A DNA stretch of 7,254 nucleotides from a virus (lineage: Duplodnaviria > Heunggongvirae > Uroviricota > Caudoviricetes), in the IMG/VR virus record IMGVR_UViG_2778261509_000007. The stretch is one strand, 5' to 3'. This document shows, piece by piece, positions 1 to 7,023 of the stretch. The position numbers were made by a program, and so were the translations under genes. The notes beneath the pieces were generated by a model. That model worked only from the letters and a program-made list of their open reading frames with translations, was not told the DNA's origin and searched no databases. Each line of letters opens with the position of its first letter. The first letter of the stretch is position 1.

Positions 1-115
1 AGAAAAAATAACGTTCACCACCGACCTCTGTCAGATCGATTTCCCAGAGCACCACCTGGGCTGACTGAGTGAGGCGTGTCGTCTCATGATGTGTTTCCTG
101 TGGAATATCCTGCAT
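1..115 (-). CDS. L: Minor tail protein L (lambda gpL-like), N-terminal 38 codons only; gene continues past the window start
   Basis: Minus-strand translation from ATG at 115..113 gives [38 protein letters not shown], open to position 1. This closely matches the lambda gpL N-terminus as I recall it (MQDIRQETLNECTRAEQSASVVLWEIDLTEVGGERYFF). The ATG shares one base with the TGA stop of M (TGATG), and the position after M matches lambda gene order. Not in the ORF track because it is truncated. Confidence 0.85.
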   Translation of the reverse strand, partial: MQDIPQETHHETTRLTQSAQVVLWEIDLTEVGGERYFF

Positions 116-453
116 CAAATCACCACTTCGTCAAACTGACACGAAAAATCGGTATAGGTGATATGTTCTGTCGCTGACCACGTTCGACACACCACTCTGA
201 TTTTTCTGTTAATACCCGGCGGGCGCCAAAAAAAAGATTTATAGCCTCCATGCCGAACTAGAAACAGTTCAAATGAATTACGTTCATTCGCCTCAACCCT
301 GAAATCACAGGTAAAAACACGCAGAGCATGATTAAGTCCGTTTGGGCTTCGTTGTTCATAACCATCGCCAAATCTTACAGTTTTTATCGATGGCTTATTT
401 TCTGTTTTCATTCCATCCTCTGGTAACCAGTAAAATTCTTCCGTATTAGCCAC
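115..453 (-). CDS. M: Minor tail protein M (lambda gpM-like), 112 aa
   Basis: ORF-track protein contains [10 protein letters not shown]...[12 protein letters not shown]...[12 protein letters not shown]...FDEVV, colinear with recalled lambda gpM (FRWKVKPGMD...VRFGDGYSQRAP...HGGWKSFLWTPP...FEQVV). GTG start at 453 with GGAGG about 8 nt upstream; overlaps the tape measure stop by 8 nt. Confidence 0.85.
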
Positions 454-3400
454 TTAACATTCCTCCATCACGGCGCATATTTAACAGAGTGCCCTGCACC
501 CGCTGATCAACCATCCCCATAAGTGCTTTTATTGCCTGAGGACCAATCTCTCCATTCTGGCCGTCATTTTGAATAGTGATTTGGTATACAGGTGCATAGG
601 TAATATCTCTGCCTCCATTACCACTTTTACTATTAATAGCTCTGACACCAAGAGAACCATCGGAAGTTCGCGTTAATGGCATAATAGCTTCCGGTCCAGC
701 CTCGCCAAAAACACCAGCTCCTTTTGCAAAAGCAAAAAATTGTGGGGAGTCATAAATACCGTTCGAATATGTACTCAATGACGGAGACTCATACACACCG
801 CCCTTTGCATTCGGAATAAATTTACTAATAGCACTCCCGATAGTTCCTAAAATCCCACCAGAAGAACTGTTATCAATGCTGTCGAAAATCCCAGTAATTG
901 AAGCCTTTAATGCAATTCGACTAAGATCCGAAATCACGGAAGTAGCGAAAGAACGAAAATTTGCCTTGCCTGTCGTGACAAAATCACCTAGCGCATCGGT
1001 CATCCCATCAAACATCTGAGTCGTGGTTGATTTTATCTGCGCACCGATATCCTTAGTGTCATCCAGCCAGTTATTGAATCCCTGGGAGGCACCACTAATC
1101 CAGTCTCCTGCCTGAATATCGAGCTGCTCGTTTTTCTGGCTGACAATTTCTTTTTCTCGTTCCAGAGCATCATTCAGAGCCTGCATTTTCTCCTGAAAAA
1201 CATGATTTGACATTCCACGGGATTTATCTGCATAGTCACGTTCAAGTTGCAGACGCTGATTGTTATATTCACGTTCAATCCGCAGTAATTCCTGCTGGCG
1301 TTGCTGATTTTTATCGCCAAACCCATAACCAGCAATCTGAATGTCATACCCCTGTTGACGATTATCAATCGAAGCCTGCAATGAATCACGCCATGCAGCT
1401 ATTTCGGCGGATTCATTGATTAGCCTGTTATTTTTTTCAATCGCAACATTTTTCTCCATCAACGCAGTTATTTCTTCCCGGTGTAAGAGAAGCGATTTCT
1501 GATCCTGGGTTAATTTCGATGACGGTCGTGACTCCAGGTCGGCAATCTGCTGACGCCACTTAACCAGTTCCTGTTCAGAGGAACTTAATTTAACGGTCAA
1601 TTCAGCTTGTGAACTTAGTAACGCATTCTGTTGATTCAGATGATCAATCATTCGTTGGGCAGCATCATCCGAATAACCTTTCGCCTTTGGTTGCTTTGGT
1701 TCTTTATAACGCTCATTTATTTGAGCGATAAGATTATTATATTCTTCCTTTGAATACTGATTCTTTAGCTTTTCCAGTTTTGCAAGTTCACTAGCTCTCT
1801 GCTGCTCCCGGGTTTGATATTGTTTTGAAAAAGCATCTGCTCTCTGTCTGAGTTCAATTCCTTCCTGTTGTCGCTTGTTGTAATCGTTTATTGATGAATT
1901 TAGTACGTCCTGAGCAATTTTTTCTGCTTGAAGTACGCCCAATTGCTGCTTTAATCGTGCCAGCTTTTTATTTTGAGCTCCGCCATCTCCAACGCCACCT
2001 AACCCGAAAACTCCGGGTCGGGTATTTTTTTCTATTTCATCAATTTGACGGAGAACATCTGAGATTTTTTGATCAAGGGAGGCCTCACGGCCAATATCCA
2101 GCATGGAATCCCATGCCCATTTTGCGGAGTCTGCGACAGCTTTCCATGCAGTCTCAAGATAACCAAGATTTTCTTTAATCTGGCTGGAACGTTGAATCAT
2201 TGAGGATGAATATGCTTCCGTCGCAATACGAGCAGCCTCCTGCTGGTTCCCTTCATCCTGTAGCGCCTTAATCTGGTTATAAGTCGCAAGTGTCAGAAAA
2301 TGGTACTGATCATTAAGTTTTGATATAGCACTGACAGGATCCTTTGCAATTTCATTGAAGTCATTAACCAGTTGTTCGGTTGATATTCCTGTTACTTCGC
2401 TCGTTTTTACTATCGCTGTCGTCACTTGCTCCAGCGAACTGCTCGCTACCTTTCCCGAACGCACAAGCTGTTTTAATACTACCGCCGCAGCGCCAGTTGT
2501 CGAATCAGCCGCATTCCCGGCACGTTGAGCTATATCGGCCAATTGCCCGCTGGTTGTCCCCAACTGATTTCCGGTAAGAATAAGAGATTTATTAAATTCG
2601 TCCTGCTCCTGAGAGCCTTTATAGTAAGCCAGCCCTAAGACGCCAACGGCTGCTGCGGCCAGGGTAAAAGGATTAATTAATCCCAGCACATAAGAACCTA
2701 CACCTTTGATCGCCGGGCCAATCCCACCGAACATATCTTTTAGCTGGCCGCCCTGCTGCATTAACACCATAAATGGCGACTGACCAGTGGACAACCCAAC
2801 AACAATATCCGTCATTTGTGCAGGCAACATGCGCATAGCAAAAGCCGTTTGTTTTGCCGACATTCCGGTTTTGCTTAATTGCGATTGAGTAACCTCAAGC
2901 TCACTCCGCATAGCACGAAGTTTTCCAGAAAGCTCCTCATACATTTCAGGAGAAAGCATCCCCTTAGCTTTTGCTTCATTGAGCTGTTTCTGTTGTTCTA
3001 CCAGACGATTAAAAGCAGTTCCGACAGGATCAAGTTGAGCAATCAGACGTTGCAAAGCAGCAACCTGTTCATCATGCGCTTTTGCTGCTTCTCGCTCTGC
3101 CTGAGCCTCTCCGGTAAGCTCTCGCCGTGTTTCCTGTATTTTTCGGCTATAATTCTCAAACTGAGAACCATTTATTTTCCCGGATGCAAACGCAGCATTA
3201 AGTTCATCCTGCTGTTGTTCAAGATGTCTTAGCGCCGCAGCCAGAGGGTCGATCTTGTCCAGCATTCTTTGAAAGGCCTGAGCCTGCGCTTCCTGCTGGG
3301 CGGCAGCAAGTTTTCCGGCCTTCTCGGCTTCTCTCTGCGCTTGCGCAACCCCGCTCAATTCCGCTGTAGTTTCATTAAGTTTACGGGAAAGAAATTCATA

Positions 3401-3679
3401 TTCTTCTTTATGAATAAGCCCTTTGTCGAAGTATTTCTTTAATTCAGAATAGCGCCGACCGACAGTATCAATTGCGGCACCAACAGGATCAATAGCTGCT
3501 TTTAATTTTGCGAGCGCGTTCTTCTCATCTTCTGTTGCCCTAGTCACTTTCCCTGCGCTATTTGCAGCAGTTGCCCCAGCCTGCGTCATTTTGACCAGGG
3601 AGGAGGTCAAATTATCAGCATTATTTTTCGCTCCAGTGCTATCAATAATTATTGCAAGACGTGAAGTTTGCTCTGTCAT
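446..3679 (-). CDS. H: Tail length tape measure protein (lambda gpH-like), 1077 aa
   Basis: Long ORF with a coiled-coil-rich N-terminus. Central segment [39 protein letters not shown] and C-terminus [16 protein letters not shown]...[10 protein letters not shown] match recalled lambda gpH ([39 protein letters not shown]; NNDGTNGQIGPAALKAV...MRDGGLFSG). ATG at 3679 with GGAG 7 nt upstream. Position between chaperone genes and M is as in lambda. Confidence 0.9.
2885..3523 (-). repeat. Three diverged tandem repeats of about 73-80 codons inside the N-terminal coiled-coil region of the tape measure gene
   Basis: Protein-level repeats anchored on recurring motifs: [24 protein letters not shown] (res 57-80), [24 protein letters not shown] (res 137-160), [25 protein letters not shown] (res 209-233). 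Each is followed by a G-x-(I/L)-xxxx-(F/Y)-xxx-S-(R/G)-K-(L/I)-xxx-(R/T)-x-EL segment and an AQAxREA stretch. The DNA is diverged, so this is not a recent duplication. Boundaries are approximate. Confidence 0.6.
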
Positions 3680-3694
3680 TTAGTTGCTCCGGAC

Positions 3695-3722
3695 AAAAAA
3701 AGCCCCGCTTAGAAAGCGGGGC
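3695..3722 (-). terminator. Rho-independent terminator downstream of the Ail/Lom-like gene, just upstream of the tape measure RBS
   Basis: Perfect 8-bp GC-rich stem (3702..3709 gccccgct pairs with 3715..3722 agcggggc), 5-nt loop, then on the minus strand a run of 7 T (3701..3695). It lies 23 nt after the TGA of the OMP gene. There is no T-run on the plus-strand side, so it is unidirectional. Confidence 0.6.
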
Positions 3723-3745
3723 CAGACAACAGAAGAAAGGAATTA

Positions 3746-4282
3746 TCAGAAACGATAACCAATACCGGTCATCCAGGTACCAACTTTCACATCGCCCAAT
3801 TTGGTGTACTCATAGGATGCGTCAACTACCCAATTTGGTACAGGATTAAACTGAATACCAGCACCATATACAACCGAAGTCTTGCTTAAAGAGTCAGAGT
3901 ATCCCAAAATCGTCGCTTCAGCACGTCCATGCGCTAAACCTATTAAGCCATATGCACTGAAGTAATCATTGAAACGATAGGCTGGACCGGCAGCTAGTGA
4001 ATAGTAATCCAGTTTTTCATTTCCAATTTTAGAGCCTGCAAAATGATAATCGTATTCTTGATGTGTGTACGTAAATGAAGATGCAACGCCCCATTTATCA
4101 TCCAGCTCATATCGATACTTAATATTTACCCCGGAAGGATTCTCATCAAGGCTTTCTCCAGCGACTTTAACATGACTTTGTGCATAACCTAGAGAAATAG
4201 TATTCTGCATCAATTCAGCATTTGCAATGCCAGTTGCAAACAAGGCTGAAGCGATAATGGTAGTCAACACTGCTTTTTTCAT
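3746..4282 (-). CDS. Ail/Lom/PagC/OmpX-family outer membrane beta-barrel protein, 178 aa (moron, candidate virulence / lysogenic-conversion factor)
   Basis: N-terminal Sec signal peptide MKKAVLTTIIASALFATGIANA with an AxA cleavage motif. Motifs SLGYAQSHVK, NIKYRYELDDKWGV, KTSVVYGAGIQFNPVPNWVVDASYEYTKL...VGTWMTGIGYRF are colinear with the Yersinia Ail / Salmonella PagC / lambda Lom family as I recall it. C-terminal aromatic residue is typical of OM beta-barrels. ATG at 4282 with a GGTGA-like SD; TGA stop at 3746. Confidence 0.85.
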   Translation of the reverse strand: MKKAVLTTIIASALFATGIANAELMQNTISLGYAQSHVKVAGESLDENPSGVNIKYRYELDDKWGVASSFTYTHQEYDYHFAGSKIGNEKLDYYSLAAGPAYRFNDYFSAYGLIGLAHGRAEATILGYSDSLSKTSVVYGAGIQFNPVPNWVVDASYEYTKLGDVKVGTWMTGIGYRF

Positions 4283-4342
4283 AAAATCACCGCTATTTCA
4301 CAAATCATTGTTATAACAGCCAGAATTAATCTGGCTGGCAGC

Positions 4343-4372
4343 ATTAAAATATCGACCACATTTTATAGTCAA
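4343..4372 (-). promoter_or_regulatory. Putative sigma70-type promoter for the Ail/Lom-like gene
   Basis: On the minus strand: TTGACT (4372..4367), 18-bp spacer, TTTAAT (4348..4343), about 60 nt upstream of the ATG, within a strongly AT-rich 143-bp intergenic region. Found by eye only, not statistically tested. Confidence 0.25.
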
Positions 4373-4425
4373 CTATCAATTTCACATAAAACTATGTACA
4401 TACAATTAATTGCCAAAGCATAAAA

Positions 4426-5216
4426 TTAATTAATCAATATCCCATCAAAAGTTTTGGATTGAGAAACATACTGGTCATCCAGCGCAAAGATCACTGCTTC
4501 AAATTCATCACTATCTATCAATATTGGGTGTGCTTTTAAATAGTCGTGTATGTCAGATATTGACAAAGGCAGCGGAACCCCGGACATGCCTGCATAACGC
4601 CTAGAACGAGACATTACTGAATACGCATACAATAACTCACGGACAACGGGGTCTATTTCTGGCTCCAGGAGCGGCGGCAACCTGAGTTTTTCTCGCTTCC
4701 ATCTTGCCTTTTCACCCTTTTCTCCCCCGAACTCAGATAACCACCGCTGGGCAGCTATGGCTTTTTTATCGTATCCTGCTTCTGCTGCTCTTTTCCCTGG
4801 GCGATGCTAGCTGCTTCTGCAAGGAGCTGCCAGTACAACTCTGGATTCTGCTTAAGCAGCGCGATCCCTCGTTCTGGCGTATATTCCAGTACAACCTCAA
4901 CACCATCAACCAGTTCACCAACCCCTTTCCAGTCTTTCAGCAGATAACGAGCCGCATTATCAATGAGTAAATCATCAACAGAATCCACCTCGGAAACCTT
5001 TGAAATATCAAACTCCTTCGTTCCGACGTGCAAACTGGCATCCATTTTCTCAATGTGGCGACGGATTAATGCATTACGGGAGCGATACTGATCGTTATCG
5101 CTGCTTGCCACCAACAGTTTTAACCCGTCTACAGGTTTTAAGTCCTTCATTGGCGTAAACCAGCGTTCTCCACTGATGATAATTTTCTGATTAAGAATAA
5201 ACATCCATAACCTCAT
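4426..5216 (-). CDS. Tail assembly chaperone G-T fusion made by a programmed -1 ribosomal frameshift at 4767..4761 (about 262 aa); the 84-aa ORF 4426..4680 is its C-terminal part
   Basis: The frame of ORF 4426..4680 is -1 relative to G (codon first positions are 0 vs 2 mod 3 on the minus strand). I translated the -1 frame from the slippery site (KKAIAAQRWLSEFGGEKGEKARWKREKLRLPPLLEPE...) and found it open with no stop down to the TAA at 4428..4426. The TTG start at 4680 given by the ORF track is an artefact of ORF calling. Confidence 0.55.
4755..5216 (-). CDS. Tail assembly chaperone (gpG-like by position and frameshift architecture), 153 aa; real start may be the ATG at 5204
   Basis: ORF sits immediately after the major tail gene and before the tape-measure region, as G does in lambda. 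It ends with ...DTIKKP* with the slippery heptamer two codons before the stop. No sequence similarity to lambda gpG that I can recognise, so the call is by synteny plus frameshift signal. The ATG at 5204 (M5) has a GAGG SD 6 nt upstream. Confidence 0.6.
   Translation of the reverse strand: MRLWMFILNQKIIISGERWFTPMKDLKPVDGLKLLVASSDNDQYRSRNALIRRHIEKMDASLHVGTKEFDISKVSEVDSVDDLLIDNAARYLLKDWKGVGELVDGVEVVLEYTPERGIALLKQNPELYWQLLAEAASIAQGKEQQKQDTIKKP
4761..4767 (-). other. Slippery heptanucleotide A_AAA_AAG (X_XXY_YYZ) for -1 programmed frameshifting
   Basis: Minus-strand sequence ATA AAA AAG CCA TAG in the G frame; the heptamer A AAA AAG is the same as the well-characterised dnaX slippery site and is positioned like the lambda G-T site, two codons before the G stop. 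Confidence 0.55.
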
Positions 5217-5264: not shown

Positions 5265-6227
5265 TCAACTAATCGCCTCAGCACTGGCTTTTGCGATCAC
5301 GGCAGCCGGGGAGTTTTTTTTTCTGGTTATCGTAGGTGCTTCATCTGCTGCGGTAATGCTCAATTGAACCTGGATAATGTCGGTATTCCCCCCATCAGGC
5401 CATTCACCTGACACCTGAACCTTCGGGAAACTGAAAGTGTATGCCCCCTCTCCATTCGAAAGCGTGAAGCTGAACGGAACTGTTTCTCCAGTCAGTGTTT
5501 TACTCCAGATTTCCCACGCGGATTTAGACCACGAAAGCGTCACCGTACCGGACGGTGTAAAAGTAGTCGGAATATTTGCTCCTGCATAAGGCGAGCCAGT
5601 CCCGATACAACGCTGTGTCTGGAGTTTGTTATCGAACTGAATATCAAAACTGTCGATACAAAAACCGTTACCTCCGGCAACACCATTCAGGCTTACCGCT
5701 GAAACCTCCTTAAACGAATAGCGTAGCTTTCCTGCACTATCCACAGGTTCGCCTTTGATAAAATTCGTATCATCGGCCTTTGATTCCCAGTCCAGCCCGG
5801 CAAAGGTTACGGTCGCTGTAATATCGCCGTCGTTAGGGATCTGCATTTTCCATGAGCCAACCTGCGCTCCTCTGACGACAGAGGCAATTCCGACATCGGA
5901 CGCATAGGTCGCCAGAGAAAATGTTATTCGCTCATTCCCCATTGTCAGAGAATCGCCTGACCATTCCGCGCCGAAACAGGATGCAAGAAAATCATCATGT
6001 TGACCCCAGCGAAATTTGGTACCGACATCACCGCCGACATCCACAGTGCCAGACGTCGCCCCCTGAGCCATCCGGGAGCCGCCGATCTCATTATTTTCGC
6101 CTTTATTCTGGGTGGGTTTTACTCCCCAGCTTGTGCGTTTTAATAAACTCCAGTCACCACTTGCTGGCGTGGTGCCTGCAACTGTCTCCCGGATAAATGC
6201 CGAGATAACCTTTGCACCTGAACTCAC
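5265..6227 (-). CDS. Major tail (tube) protein, 320 aa (assigned by position)
   Basis: ORF lies between the tail-terminator-like gene and the G/G-T chaperone pair, the canonical major tail protein slot. GTG start at 6227 with GGAGG 5 nt upstream; TGA stop at 5265. It does not resemble lambda gpV as I recall it, so the call rests on synteny and size. Confidence 0.55.
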   Translation of the reverse strand: MSSGAKVISAFIRETVAGTTPASGDWSLLKRTSWGVKPTQNKGENNEIGGSRMAQGATSGTVDVGGDVGTKFRWGQHDDFLASCFGAEWSGDSLTMGNERITFSLATYASDVGIASVVRGAQVGSWKMQIPNDGDITATVTFAGLDWESKADDTNFIKGEPVDSAGKLRYSFKEVSAVSLNGVAGGNGFCIDSFDIQFDNKLQTQRCIGTGSPYAGANIPTTFTPSGTVTLSWSKSAWEIWSKTLTGETVPFSFTLSNGEGAYTFSFPKVQVSGEWPDGGNTDIIQVQLSITAADEAPTITRKKNSPAAVIAKASAEAIS

Positions 6228-6253: not shown

Positions 6254-6646
6254 CTAGAGCGCGCGATATGGAATTTGAAGATTAAGCTGGAACCAGCCAT
6301 TCTTTTCGCCAACGGCTATTGAGGAAACAGCCTGGTAACTGAGACGATCGTCATCCTGAAACTCAAACAGTTCCCGCAATTTATCGGCTGTCTCAGTAAT
6401 GAGTTTTGAACCAGAACCTGCGGGGACAAATAACTGAATAATGATTATCCCCGTGCGATAAACAACCGGCCCCGCGCCAATTTCATTAACTCCAGCCTGC
6501 CCGGGAATATTACTTAACCGCGCCCAGATTAACTTACCGGAAGGATCGAACGTTGGCCCGTTCGGATACAATACGTCTTTTCCATCAATAATCGTCTGTG
6601 CCGTCATTCTGGAAATAACCGTATTTCTGATTTCAGTAAACGTCAT
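6254..6646 (-). CDS. Tail terminator-like protein (functional analogue of lambda gpU by position and size), 130 aa
   Basis: 130-aa ORF immediately upstream of the major tail gene (lambda gpU is about 131 aa and occupies the same slot). ATG at 6646 overlaps the stop of the preceding gene (ATGA). Only weak recognisable sequence similarity to lambda U, so the call is by synteny. Confidence 0.45.
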   Translation of the reverse strand: MTFTEIRNTVISRMTAQTIIDGKDVLYPNGPTFDPSGKLIWARLSNIPGQAGVNEIGAGPVVYRTGIIIIQLFVPAGSGSKLITETADKLRELFEFQDDDRLSYQAVSSIAVGEKNGWFQLNLQIPYRAL

Positions 6647-7023
6647 TTGTAAGCCTGTAAAACACCATGAAAAGCGTTGGCATACACGCCAGTTGGCGCT
6701 TGTTGTGAATGACCGTTTTCAAGAGCCTCTGCATAAGGAAGGTTATTCTGGATATAAATAACCCCGTAATTTGCAGCTTTCGAAATAACCCCGATCCCAC
6801 GCTGAACAGCAATCGTACCGTTCGGATCCACGTTATCAGATATACCAAAATCGGGATGCTGTAACGACACCAGGTTGTTATTTCTGAAACGTCCGGTATC
6901 AACCGGAGCAGCAATATCAATAGCAGTAAGAATCTGAATAGCGATGTAGCGAATCTTCAGCCCTACATCTTCCTCAATCATCCCGGCAAATATTGACGGT
7001 TCTATATCCCATGCCTTTGCCAT
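6643..7023 (-). CDS. HK97 gp10-family tail completion / head-tail joining protein, 126 aa
   Basis: Contains the motif PVDTGRFRNNN that I associate with the HK97 gp10 family (D-T-G-R-L/F-R signature). ATG at 7023 preceded by AAGGAG; stop overlaps the next gene start (ATGA at 6646..6643). Sits in the lambda gpZ-equivalent slot. Confidence 0.55.
   Translation of the reverse strand: MAKAWDIEPSIFAGMIEEDVGLKIRYIAIQILTAIDIAAPVDTGRFRNNNLVSLQHPDFGISDNVDPNGTIAVQRGIGVISKAANYGVIYIQNNLPYAEALENGHSQQAPTGVYANAFHGVLQAYK

Follow-up and report, generated by a model that had tools for sequence, protein, structure and literature searches.

Gene Content of the Window and Prophage Setting

The window, by which is meant the whole analysed stretch of 7,254 nucleotides, carries a segment of a lambda-like tail operon in which, according to ORF calls and profile searches, all genes lie on the minus strand (Table 1). 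In the sense direction, the genes for the tail completion, tail terminator and tail tube proteins are followed by the gene for the tail assembly chaperone, the last gene of the backbone together with its frameshift extension T, then by a gene encoding an outer-membrane beta-barrel of the Ail/Lom family (here called ail), and finally by the genes for the tape-measure protein and an M-like minor tail protein. The tape-measure ORF is matched in Pfam by TMP_2 (2.3e-81) as well as by Tape_meas_lam_C and TMP_4. The chaperone gene contains a canonical -1 slippery heptamer, A_AAA_AAG, at positions 4761–4767 of the minus strand, two codons before its stop; the -1 frame is open from the heptamer to position 4426, and a G-T fusion protein (...DTIKK/AIAAQRW...) is therefore predicted. 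In the RefSeq annotation of Escherichia coli RM10740, G is named only "hypothetical protein" and the T frame is without annotation.

Besides E. coli RM10740, six further complete genomes carry a prophage 100% identical to the window; in RM10740 it adjoins trkG, ompN and ydbJ/hslJ, which is the Rac site. A complete prophage 100% identical to the window (locus L003) was used for the genes that lie outside it.

Table 1. Features of the window and of related loci discussed in the text. Positions are those of the window unless a locus is named.
Feature	Position	Strand	Evidence or sequence
Tail completion protein	6643–7023	(-)	phrog_169
Tail terminator protein	6254–6646	(-)	PF13554
Tail tube protein	5265–6227	(-)	PF18906
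Tail assembly chaperone, lambda G-like	4755–5216	(-)	phrog_313 (2.9e-46)
T-frame extension; 3' end is the left edge of the cassette	4426–4767	(-)	phrog_1189 (1.4e-30); translations
Cassette, about 770 bp	3701–4467	(-)	similarity breakpoints against cassette-free relatives and GC content
Putative promoter-like block	4343–4372	(-)	TTGACT (4367–4372), variable spacer, TATTTTAAT (4343–4351)
Ail/Lom (OmpX-like) outer-membrane beta-barrel, 178 aa	3746–4282	(-)	PF13505, PF06316, phrog_108
Predicted terminator hairpin, 10 bp, 3-nt loop	3701–3723	(-)	GGCCCCGCTT-TCT-AAGCGGGGCT; about -18 kcal/mol
T7 tract (U-tract), uninterrupted, sharing one T with the stem	3695–3701	(-)
GTCC between T7 tract and GGAG	3691–3694	(-)
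GGAG, Shine-Dalgarno sequence of the tape-measure gene, 7 nt 5' of the ATG	3687–3690	(-)
CAACTAA	3680–3686	(-)
ATG opening the tape-measure ORF	3677–3679	(-)
Tape-measure protein, 1077 aa, lambda H-like	446–3679	(-)	PF06791, PF09718, PF24622
M-like minor tail protein	115–453	(-)	PF05939
Q-like gene	L003: 2964–3506		profile matches
Predicted terminator past the Q-like gene	L003: 3587–3620		hairpin + T-run
trkG	L003: 5986–7443
Predicted terminator after trkG	L003: 7518–7565		-25 kcal/mol
Head-tail ORF	L003: 17094–17477
Second Ail/Lom gene (lom)	L003: 29895–30494		PF06316 (6.9e-118)
Predicted terminator after the second lom	L003: 30520–30560		hairpin + T-run
165-nt mini-cassette	L001: 2365–2529		own terminator
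Terminator-capped joint cargo, other hosts	L074: 1268–2428
Terminator-capped joint cargo, other hosts	L079: 1512–2396
Terminator-capped joint cargo, other hosts	L091: 1476–1841
Terminator-capped joint cargo, other hosts	L092: 1867–2436
Terminator-capped joint cargo, other hosts	L093: 2034–2435
Terminator-capped joint cargo, other hosts	L095: 1652–2428

A Predicted Intrinsic Terminator in Front of the Tape-Measure Gene

The stop codon of ail and the ATG of the tape-measure gene are separated by a spacer of 66 nt (3680–3745, minus strand; ...TCTGGCCCCGCTTTCTAAGCGGGGCTTTTTTTGTCCGGAGCAACTAAATG), which contains a hairpin, a T-run and the ribosome-binding site. The stem starts 22 nt past the ail stop codon on the sense strand and is made of seven G-C, two A-T and one G-T pairs, with a folding energy of about -18.0 kcal/mol in ViennaRNA. 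A pattern scan ranked this site first among the terminator-like sites of the window, the next-best hairpin with a direct T-run on either strand reached -12.7 kcal/mol, and a combination as strong as that of the spacer arose anywhere in only one of 200 dinucleotide shuffles of the window. At the sequence level the site has everything expected of a strong intrinsic terminator, namely a GC-rich stem-loop, a short loop, a contiguous U-tract and a position after a stop codon; moreover, in the reverse complement no T-run follows the stem, so that the signal points in one direction, that of the sense strand. Anatomy, energy and the conservation described below support the prediction of a Rho-independent terminator, and the hairpin with T-run that the preliminary description had recognized in front of the tape-measure gene is thus confirmed. 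Its limits needed small corrections: the end of the T-run at 3695 is right, the stem begins at 3723 and not at 3722, and the GGAG motif lies 4 nt and not 3 nt past the T-run, while the distance of about 15 nt between T-run and ATG proved to be exactly 15 nt.

Rfam models of a leader, an attenuator or an sRNA were rejected as a description of the site, given that at a permissive threshold the matches were generic and below the gathering scores (Trp_leader, 26.5 against 41 bits; anti-hemB, 21.1 against 49.5). A terminator-like hairpin with T-run is also found at 2002–2032 of the plus strand, antisense within the tape-measure gene; its energy of -12.7 kcal/mol is within the range of the shuffles and it is probably due to chance.

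The 15 nt between the T-run and the ATG leave no room for a promoter, so that the tape-measure gene and the genes that follow depend on transcripts that read through the terminator, as the preliminary description had proposed.

The Ail/Lom Gene as an Inserted Cassette

The ail gene belongs to a segment that interrupts the similarity to related phages. In comparison with the cassette-free Salmonella phage SPF_0923 (L001), similarity ends after ...GATGACCAGTAT, the last codons of T (about 4467), and to cassette-free relatives it restarts at the T-run of the terminator, with the megablast alignment starting at position 3705 of the window. The GC content of the cassette is 31–40% (across 4000–4500) versus 45–52% in the flanks. 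The gene is missing in most relatives that have the T and tape-measure flanks in common: among the 1069 complete E. coli genomes sharing the 5' end of the tape-measure gene, 19 carry the Ail/Lom cassette, the gene being absent from about 1050 genomes that match this 5' end at 90–95% identity, and none of the 10 matching phage records contains the cassette.

The assignment of the 178-aa product is based on matches to OMP_b-brl (1.2e-27) and Ail_Lom (3.8e-27) in Pfam and to the Lom family phrog_108 (1.7e-46), in agreement with the RefSeq product name; among the proteins of 50,697 phage records, none is more than 46% identical to it. Upstream of the gene, 60–90 nt 5' of its ATG, lies a promoter-like block in which both hexamer regions are invariant and the spacer is variable across five cassettes of the Ail class, including the divergent one of locus L071. 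A consensus scan called no minus-strand promoter upstream of ail, and no canonical -10 element occurs at a spacing of 16–18 nt; the block escapes the scan because at this spacing there is no hexamer with A at position 2. The conservation of TTGACT...TATTTTAAT nevertheless suggests that it may be a promoter of the cassette.

Of the properties that define a moron after Hendrix and Juhala, extra DNA between backbone genes that close relatives lack, a terminator of its own and a deviant base composition are found here, and the conserved block is a candidate for a promoter of its own. The Ail/Lom cassette is very probably a horizontally acquired, self-contained moron that was inserted in sense orientation between the G/GT and tape-measure genes of a lambdoid prophage at the Rac site, and the predicted terminator would be its cap.

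Variation of the T/Tape-Measure Joint in Related Prophages

The same joint was compared in 91 loci encoding a related tape-measure N-terminus (80 from IMG/VR, 9 usable GTDB genome loci and 2 phage records), which reduce to 20 distinct junction sequences from six genera, Escherichia, Shigella, Citrobacter, Entomohabitans, Rosenbergiella and Raoultella. An empty joint was found in none of the 91 loci. All 20 junctions contain a hairpin of 6–10 bp with a run of five to eight T residues that ends 15–20 nt before the tape-measure ATG. The stems were compared through the fold of each junction, a MAFFT alignment of 15 junctions (A1) being out of register, and nine unrelated stems could be distinguished, for instance CCCAC/GTGGG, CTCGC/GCGGG, CCCAG/CTGGG, GCCGC/GCGGC and GCCGCG/CGCGGC. 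The type of stem tracks the class of cargo. In particular, throughout the Ail class the 20 bases of the stem are identical and the 3-nt loop occurs in four variants (TCT, ACC, ATC and CCC), and the same stem is present in L071, despite a divergent Ail/Lom protein and an identity of 91% rather than 95–100% to the query at the tape-measure N-terminus. A terminator in every junction and a stem that follows the cargo class indicate that the presence of the terminator is maintained and that the terminator travels with the cassette.

The edges of the joint are conserved and consist of the ...ALDD end of T on one side and of the T-run with (A)TG(C/T)CCGGAG on the other, the latter being more conserved than the stems; the (C/A)GGAG motif is likewise conserved among relatives. 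Between these edges lie variants of the Ail/Lom gene, a predicted lipoprotein together with a zinc-ribbon membrane protein, a 294-aa secreted protein, an ORF6N-domain protein, found in Raoultella, and proteins of unknown function; zinc-ribbon membrane proteins (PF13248) occupy the joint in three loci.

The commonest occupant is a mini-cassette of 165 nt, present in L001, in L002 and in about 65 other loci, which takes the place of positions 3701–4467 of the window and ends in a terminator of its own, AAACCCAC-TTCG-GTGGGTTTTTT, although in some variants the stem is weakened to about -5 kcal/mol. Its only ORF, of 29 aa, was discarded as a gene, having no PHROG match and an ATG changed to ATA or ATT in several variants; a search of the mini-cassette against Rfam gave no match. 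The mini-cassette could be the remnant of a moron or an sRNA gene. Because it is capped by a terminator and lacks a convincing gene, the terminator is not always tied to an evident cargo, and a function in the backbone is conceivable. What is mildly new in this survey is that across six genera the joint acts as a slot for cargo that is never empty and never without a terminator, and that most relatives hold an unexplained 165-nt mini-cassette in it.

The preliminary description had regarded the arrangement as selectively maintained. This view holds for the presence of the terminator, which is found in 20 of 20 junction types despite nine unrelated stems, and not for the tight packing of terminator and ribosome-binding site as something special to this locus. 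Such close packing recurs between gene 15 and H of HK97, between lom and L of Fels-1 and between lom and stf of the same prophage. With the cassette lodged in a very short intergenic joint, the terminator comes to abut the ribosome-binding site of the tape-measure gene, and the packing is most simply the outcome of cassette insertion into a compact operon.

The Late Operon and Its Q-Like Gene

In the complete prophage, the late genes lie on one strand from Q to the tail fibre, in the order DUF1367, YbcO, the Q-like gene, two tRNAs (Thr and Gly), the lysis genes (essD/rrrD/rzpD), trkG, terminase, head, tail, lom and tail fibre. The Q-like gene thus occupies the canonical position upstream of the lysis cassette. 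Its product is matched by phrog_753, "anti-termination protein Q-like" (9.5e-77), by PF06576 (5.5e-104) and by PF06530 (Phage_antitermQ), the last with 28 bits versus a cutoff of 26; among PDB chains, which include the solved Q structures, no sequence match was obtained. On the basis of the profile matches, the protein is predicted to be a Q-like antiterminator, with a putative link to the structures of Q21 and Q-lambda.

About 100 nt past the stop codon of this gene lies a predicted terminator with its T-run at 3613. In lambdoid phages, tR' follows pR'. Inspection by eye of positions 3500–3620 reveals TTGATT-N17-TTCAAT preceded by TG and then the terminator, which looks like a late promoter unit of the pR'/tR' type; neither a QBE nor a pause element was identified near this candidate late promoter.

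A scan for hairpins with T-runs located intergenic terminators on the sense strand with T-runs at 3613, 7558, 14408, 20800, 29865 and 30542. Besides the one in front of the tape-measure gene, at least five thus lie within the late operon, that is, after Q, trkG, a head gene, J and the second lom; the one after trkG is the strongest of the prophage. The trkG gene, which encodes a potassium transporter and is known cargo of Rac, belongs to the late operon as well, with the lysis genes on one side and a ParB-like gene on the other. The second Ail/Lom gene is a full-length lom of the lambda type located after J, as in lambda, and is flanked by terminators, the T-run at 29865 preceding it and that at 30542 ending 11 nt before the ATG of the tail-fibre gene (stf). 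For a head-tail ORF of the same prophage that has an internal stop, RefSeq gives the label "glutamate 5-kinase", pseudogene. This seems to be an annotation error; alternatively, a structural gene is truly damaged, which would render this copy of the prophage defective.

In having a Q-type gene ahead of a late operon dotted with predicted terminators, the prophage follows the lambdoid design. Polymerase loaded with Q stays resistant to terminators for tens of thousands of nucleotides (bioRxiv 10.1101/651190). The proposal of the preliminary description that late transcription is terminator-resistant in the manner of Q agrees with the predicted Q-like gene and with the number of sense-strand intergenic terminators that late transcripts would have to pass.

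Comparison with Known Morons and Antitermination Systems

The closest known system is gene 15 of HK97, the founding moron (Juhala and Hendrix), which sits between the tail chaperone and tape-measure genes (PMC3594210). Both cassettes occupy the joint between G/GT and the tape-measure gene, in sense orientation and as a self-contained unit capped by a Rho-independent terminator. In the GenBank record of HK97, a putative terminator is placed at 8398–8422 and H starts with its ATG at 8435; the T-run ends 12 nt before the tape-measure ATG, versus 15 nt in the window. Both phages are lambdoid, and in both the late operon must read through the terminator. However, the cargo of HK97 is gp15, a 62-aa inner-membrane protein of superinfection exclusion, whereas that of the window is a 178-aa outer-membrane barrel; the tape-measure and tail backbone of HK97 belongs to a lineage different from that of the Rac-site prophage, and the two stems have in common only a short CCCGCT...AGCGGG core.

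With respect to the cargo, the gene resembles lom of lambda, which, like bor, is expressed from the prophage and lies inside the Q-dependent late region. Both lom and ail belong to the Ail/Lom family and are in sense orientation in the tail region, but lom follows J whereas ail lies between GT and H, and the protein of 178 aa, versus 199 aa for Lom, is about 31–35% identical to phage Lom proteins. The closest Ail/Lom homologues of phage records that are found in a tail-operon context are STM1043 of Gifsy-2 (42%) and STM0920 of Fels-1 (39%). As in the window, these Lom-like genes are in sense orientation inside the tail operon and are followed by a hairpin with T-run, and in Fels-1 the distance from the end of the second T-run to the ATG of L is 12 nt; their site, however, is the M/L joint instead of the GT/H joint, and Gifsy-2 carries in addition sodCI on the opposite strand.

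Concerning antitermination, the prophage shares with lambdoid phages a Q-like gene directly upstream of the lysis genes, a terminator about 100 nt downstream of it and a long unidirectional operon with several intrinsic terminators. Its Q-like protein, whose activity is a predicted one, differs in belonging to DUF1133/phrog_753 and in being only marginally matched by PF06530.

Proposed Function of the Terminator and Alternative Explanations

The best explanation of the locus, and in our judgement a highly probable one on these in silico grounds, is that the hairpin is the terminator of the moron in the lysogen and is read through in a Q-dependent manner during late transcription. In a lysogen, ordinary RNA polymerase coming from the cassette promoter, which would be active in this state, or from further upstream would stop at about 3695–3700, and the Ail/Lom protein would be made without leak into the tape-measure, M and L genes. 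Upon induction, Q-modified polymerase starting at the late promoter would ignore this terminator and the others of the operon, and the tail genes would be transcribed. The interpretation of the preliminary description, which is of this kind, is the published moron model (PMC3594210) combined with established Q antitermination. In the literature, no transcript evidence, such as Term-seq data, specific to this prophage family was found.

A different role would be that of an attenuator belonging to the backbone, a fixed element of the tail module that stops a fraction of late transcripts even when polymerase is Q-modified and thereby keeps the tape-measure, M, L and later genes at a lower level of expression than the upstream genes for tube and chaperone, on the premise that the products of the former are needed in few copies per virion. 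The universal presence of a terminator in the junction types, including the mini-cassette without a convincing gene, the lack of any empty joint, the greater conservation of the T-run with (A)TG(C/T)CCGGAG compared with the stems and the further putative terminators that the HK97 record places ahead of the major tail gene and between this gene and those of the chaperone are all consistent with this role. However, a fixed element is difficult to reconcile with a stem that follows the cargo class and is identical across the Ail class up to L071; the same layout of terminator and ribosome-binding site is seen after other obvious morons, such as trkG and lom in L003 and lom in Fels-1, where no stoichiometric reason applies, and the decay of some mini-cassette stems to -5 kcal/mol would be unexpected for an essential attenuator. 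This role is quite unlikely as the explanation of the site, although attenuation and termination of the moron transcript are not mutually exclusive. A broader version, in which the terminator would be a conserved backbone feature of a tail-module family of Enterobacterales siphophages, the joint a dedicated slot for cargo exchange with short anchors at which cassettes could be swapped (through recombinases of the Rad52 type or RecET, for instance), and the terminator in addition an insulator or attenuator keeping tape-measure expression low, is also unlikely.

Terminator hairpins generally stabilise 3' ends, and a hairpin as stable as this one could guard the 3' end of the upstream mRNA, either that of ail or that of processed tube/chaperone segments, from 3'-5' exonucleases with no significant termination; this is very unlikely, since the U7 tract directly after the stem marks termination, is not needed for stabilisation and has a counterpart in every junction type, and stabilisation would in any case be a side benefit of termination rather than an alternative to it. 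Translational control, in which the sequence 5' of the hairpin pairs with the Shine-Dalgarno sequence or the start codon of the read-through mRNA and throttles tape-measure translation, can be drawn from the minimum free energy fold, where UUCUGUUGU (3729–3737) pairs with AUGACAGAG (3671–3679, including the tape-measure start codon) through 9 bp, three of which are G-U, and from the mini-cassette, where CCUGA on the 5' side of the stem is complementary to UCAGG in the Shine-Dalgarno region. These clamp helices are nevertheless short, rich in G-U and weak, their partners differ between classes, the helix at the start codon is not conserved in L071, where the start is ATGACT, and the z-score of -2.4 of the region is largely due to the terminator itself, which makes such control highly improbable. 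A chance inverted repeat without function, finally, might be suspected from a scan with a loose consensus, which returned nine terminator-like sites in the window against 7.6 in shuffled sequences; yet the site is far stronger than the rest and was equalled in a single shuffle, it lies on the sense strand in a short spacer right after a stop codon, and an equivalent structure with unrelated stems occupies the same position in every relative, so that chance is effectively refuted and moron termination with late read-through is the explanation retained here.

Significance for Lysogeny and Annotation

The locus illustrates the moron model cleanly, and does so at the joint from which the definition of morons started; its importance beyond this is small. 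A minority of Rac-site prophages in E. coli from pigs, cattle and humans, including ETEC, carry the Ail/Lom protein, which may act in serum resistance or adhesion. Its gene would be insulated from the tail genes by a strong predicted terminator, which is expected to be passed only by late transcription under antitermination. In annotating this prophage family, lysogenic-conversion cargo can be sought reliably at the joint between GT and the tape-measure gene, where the last codons of T and the T-run of the terminator mark the limits of each cargo.
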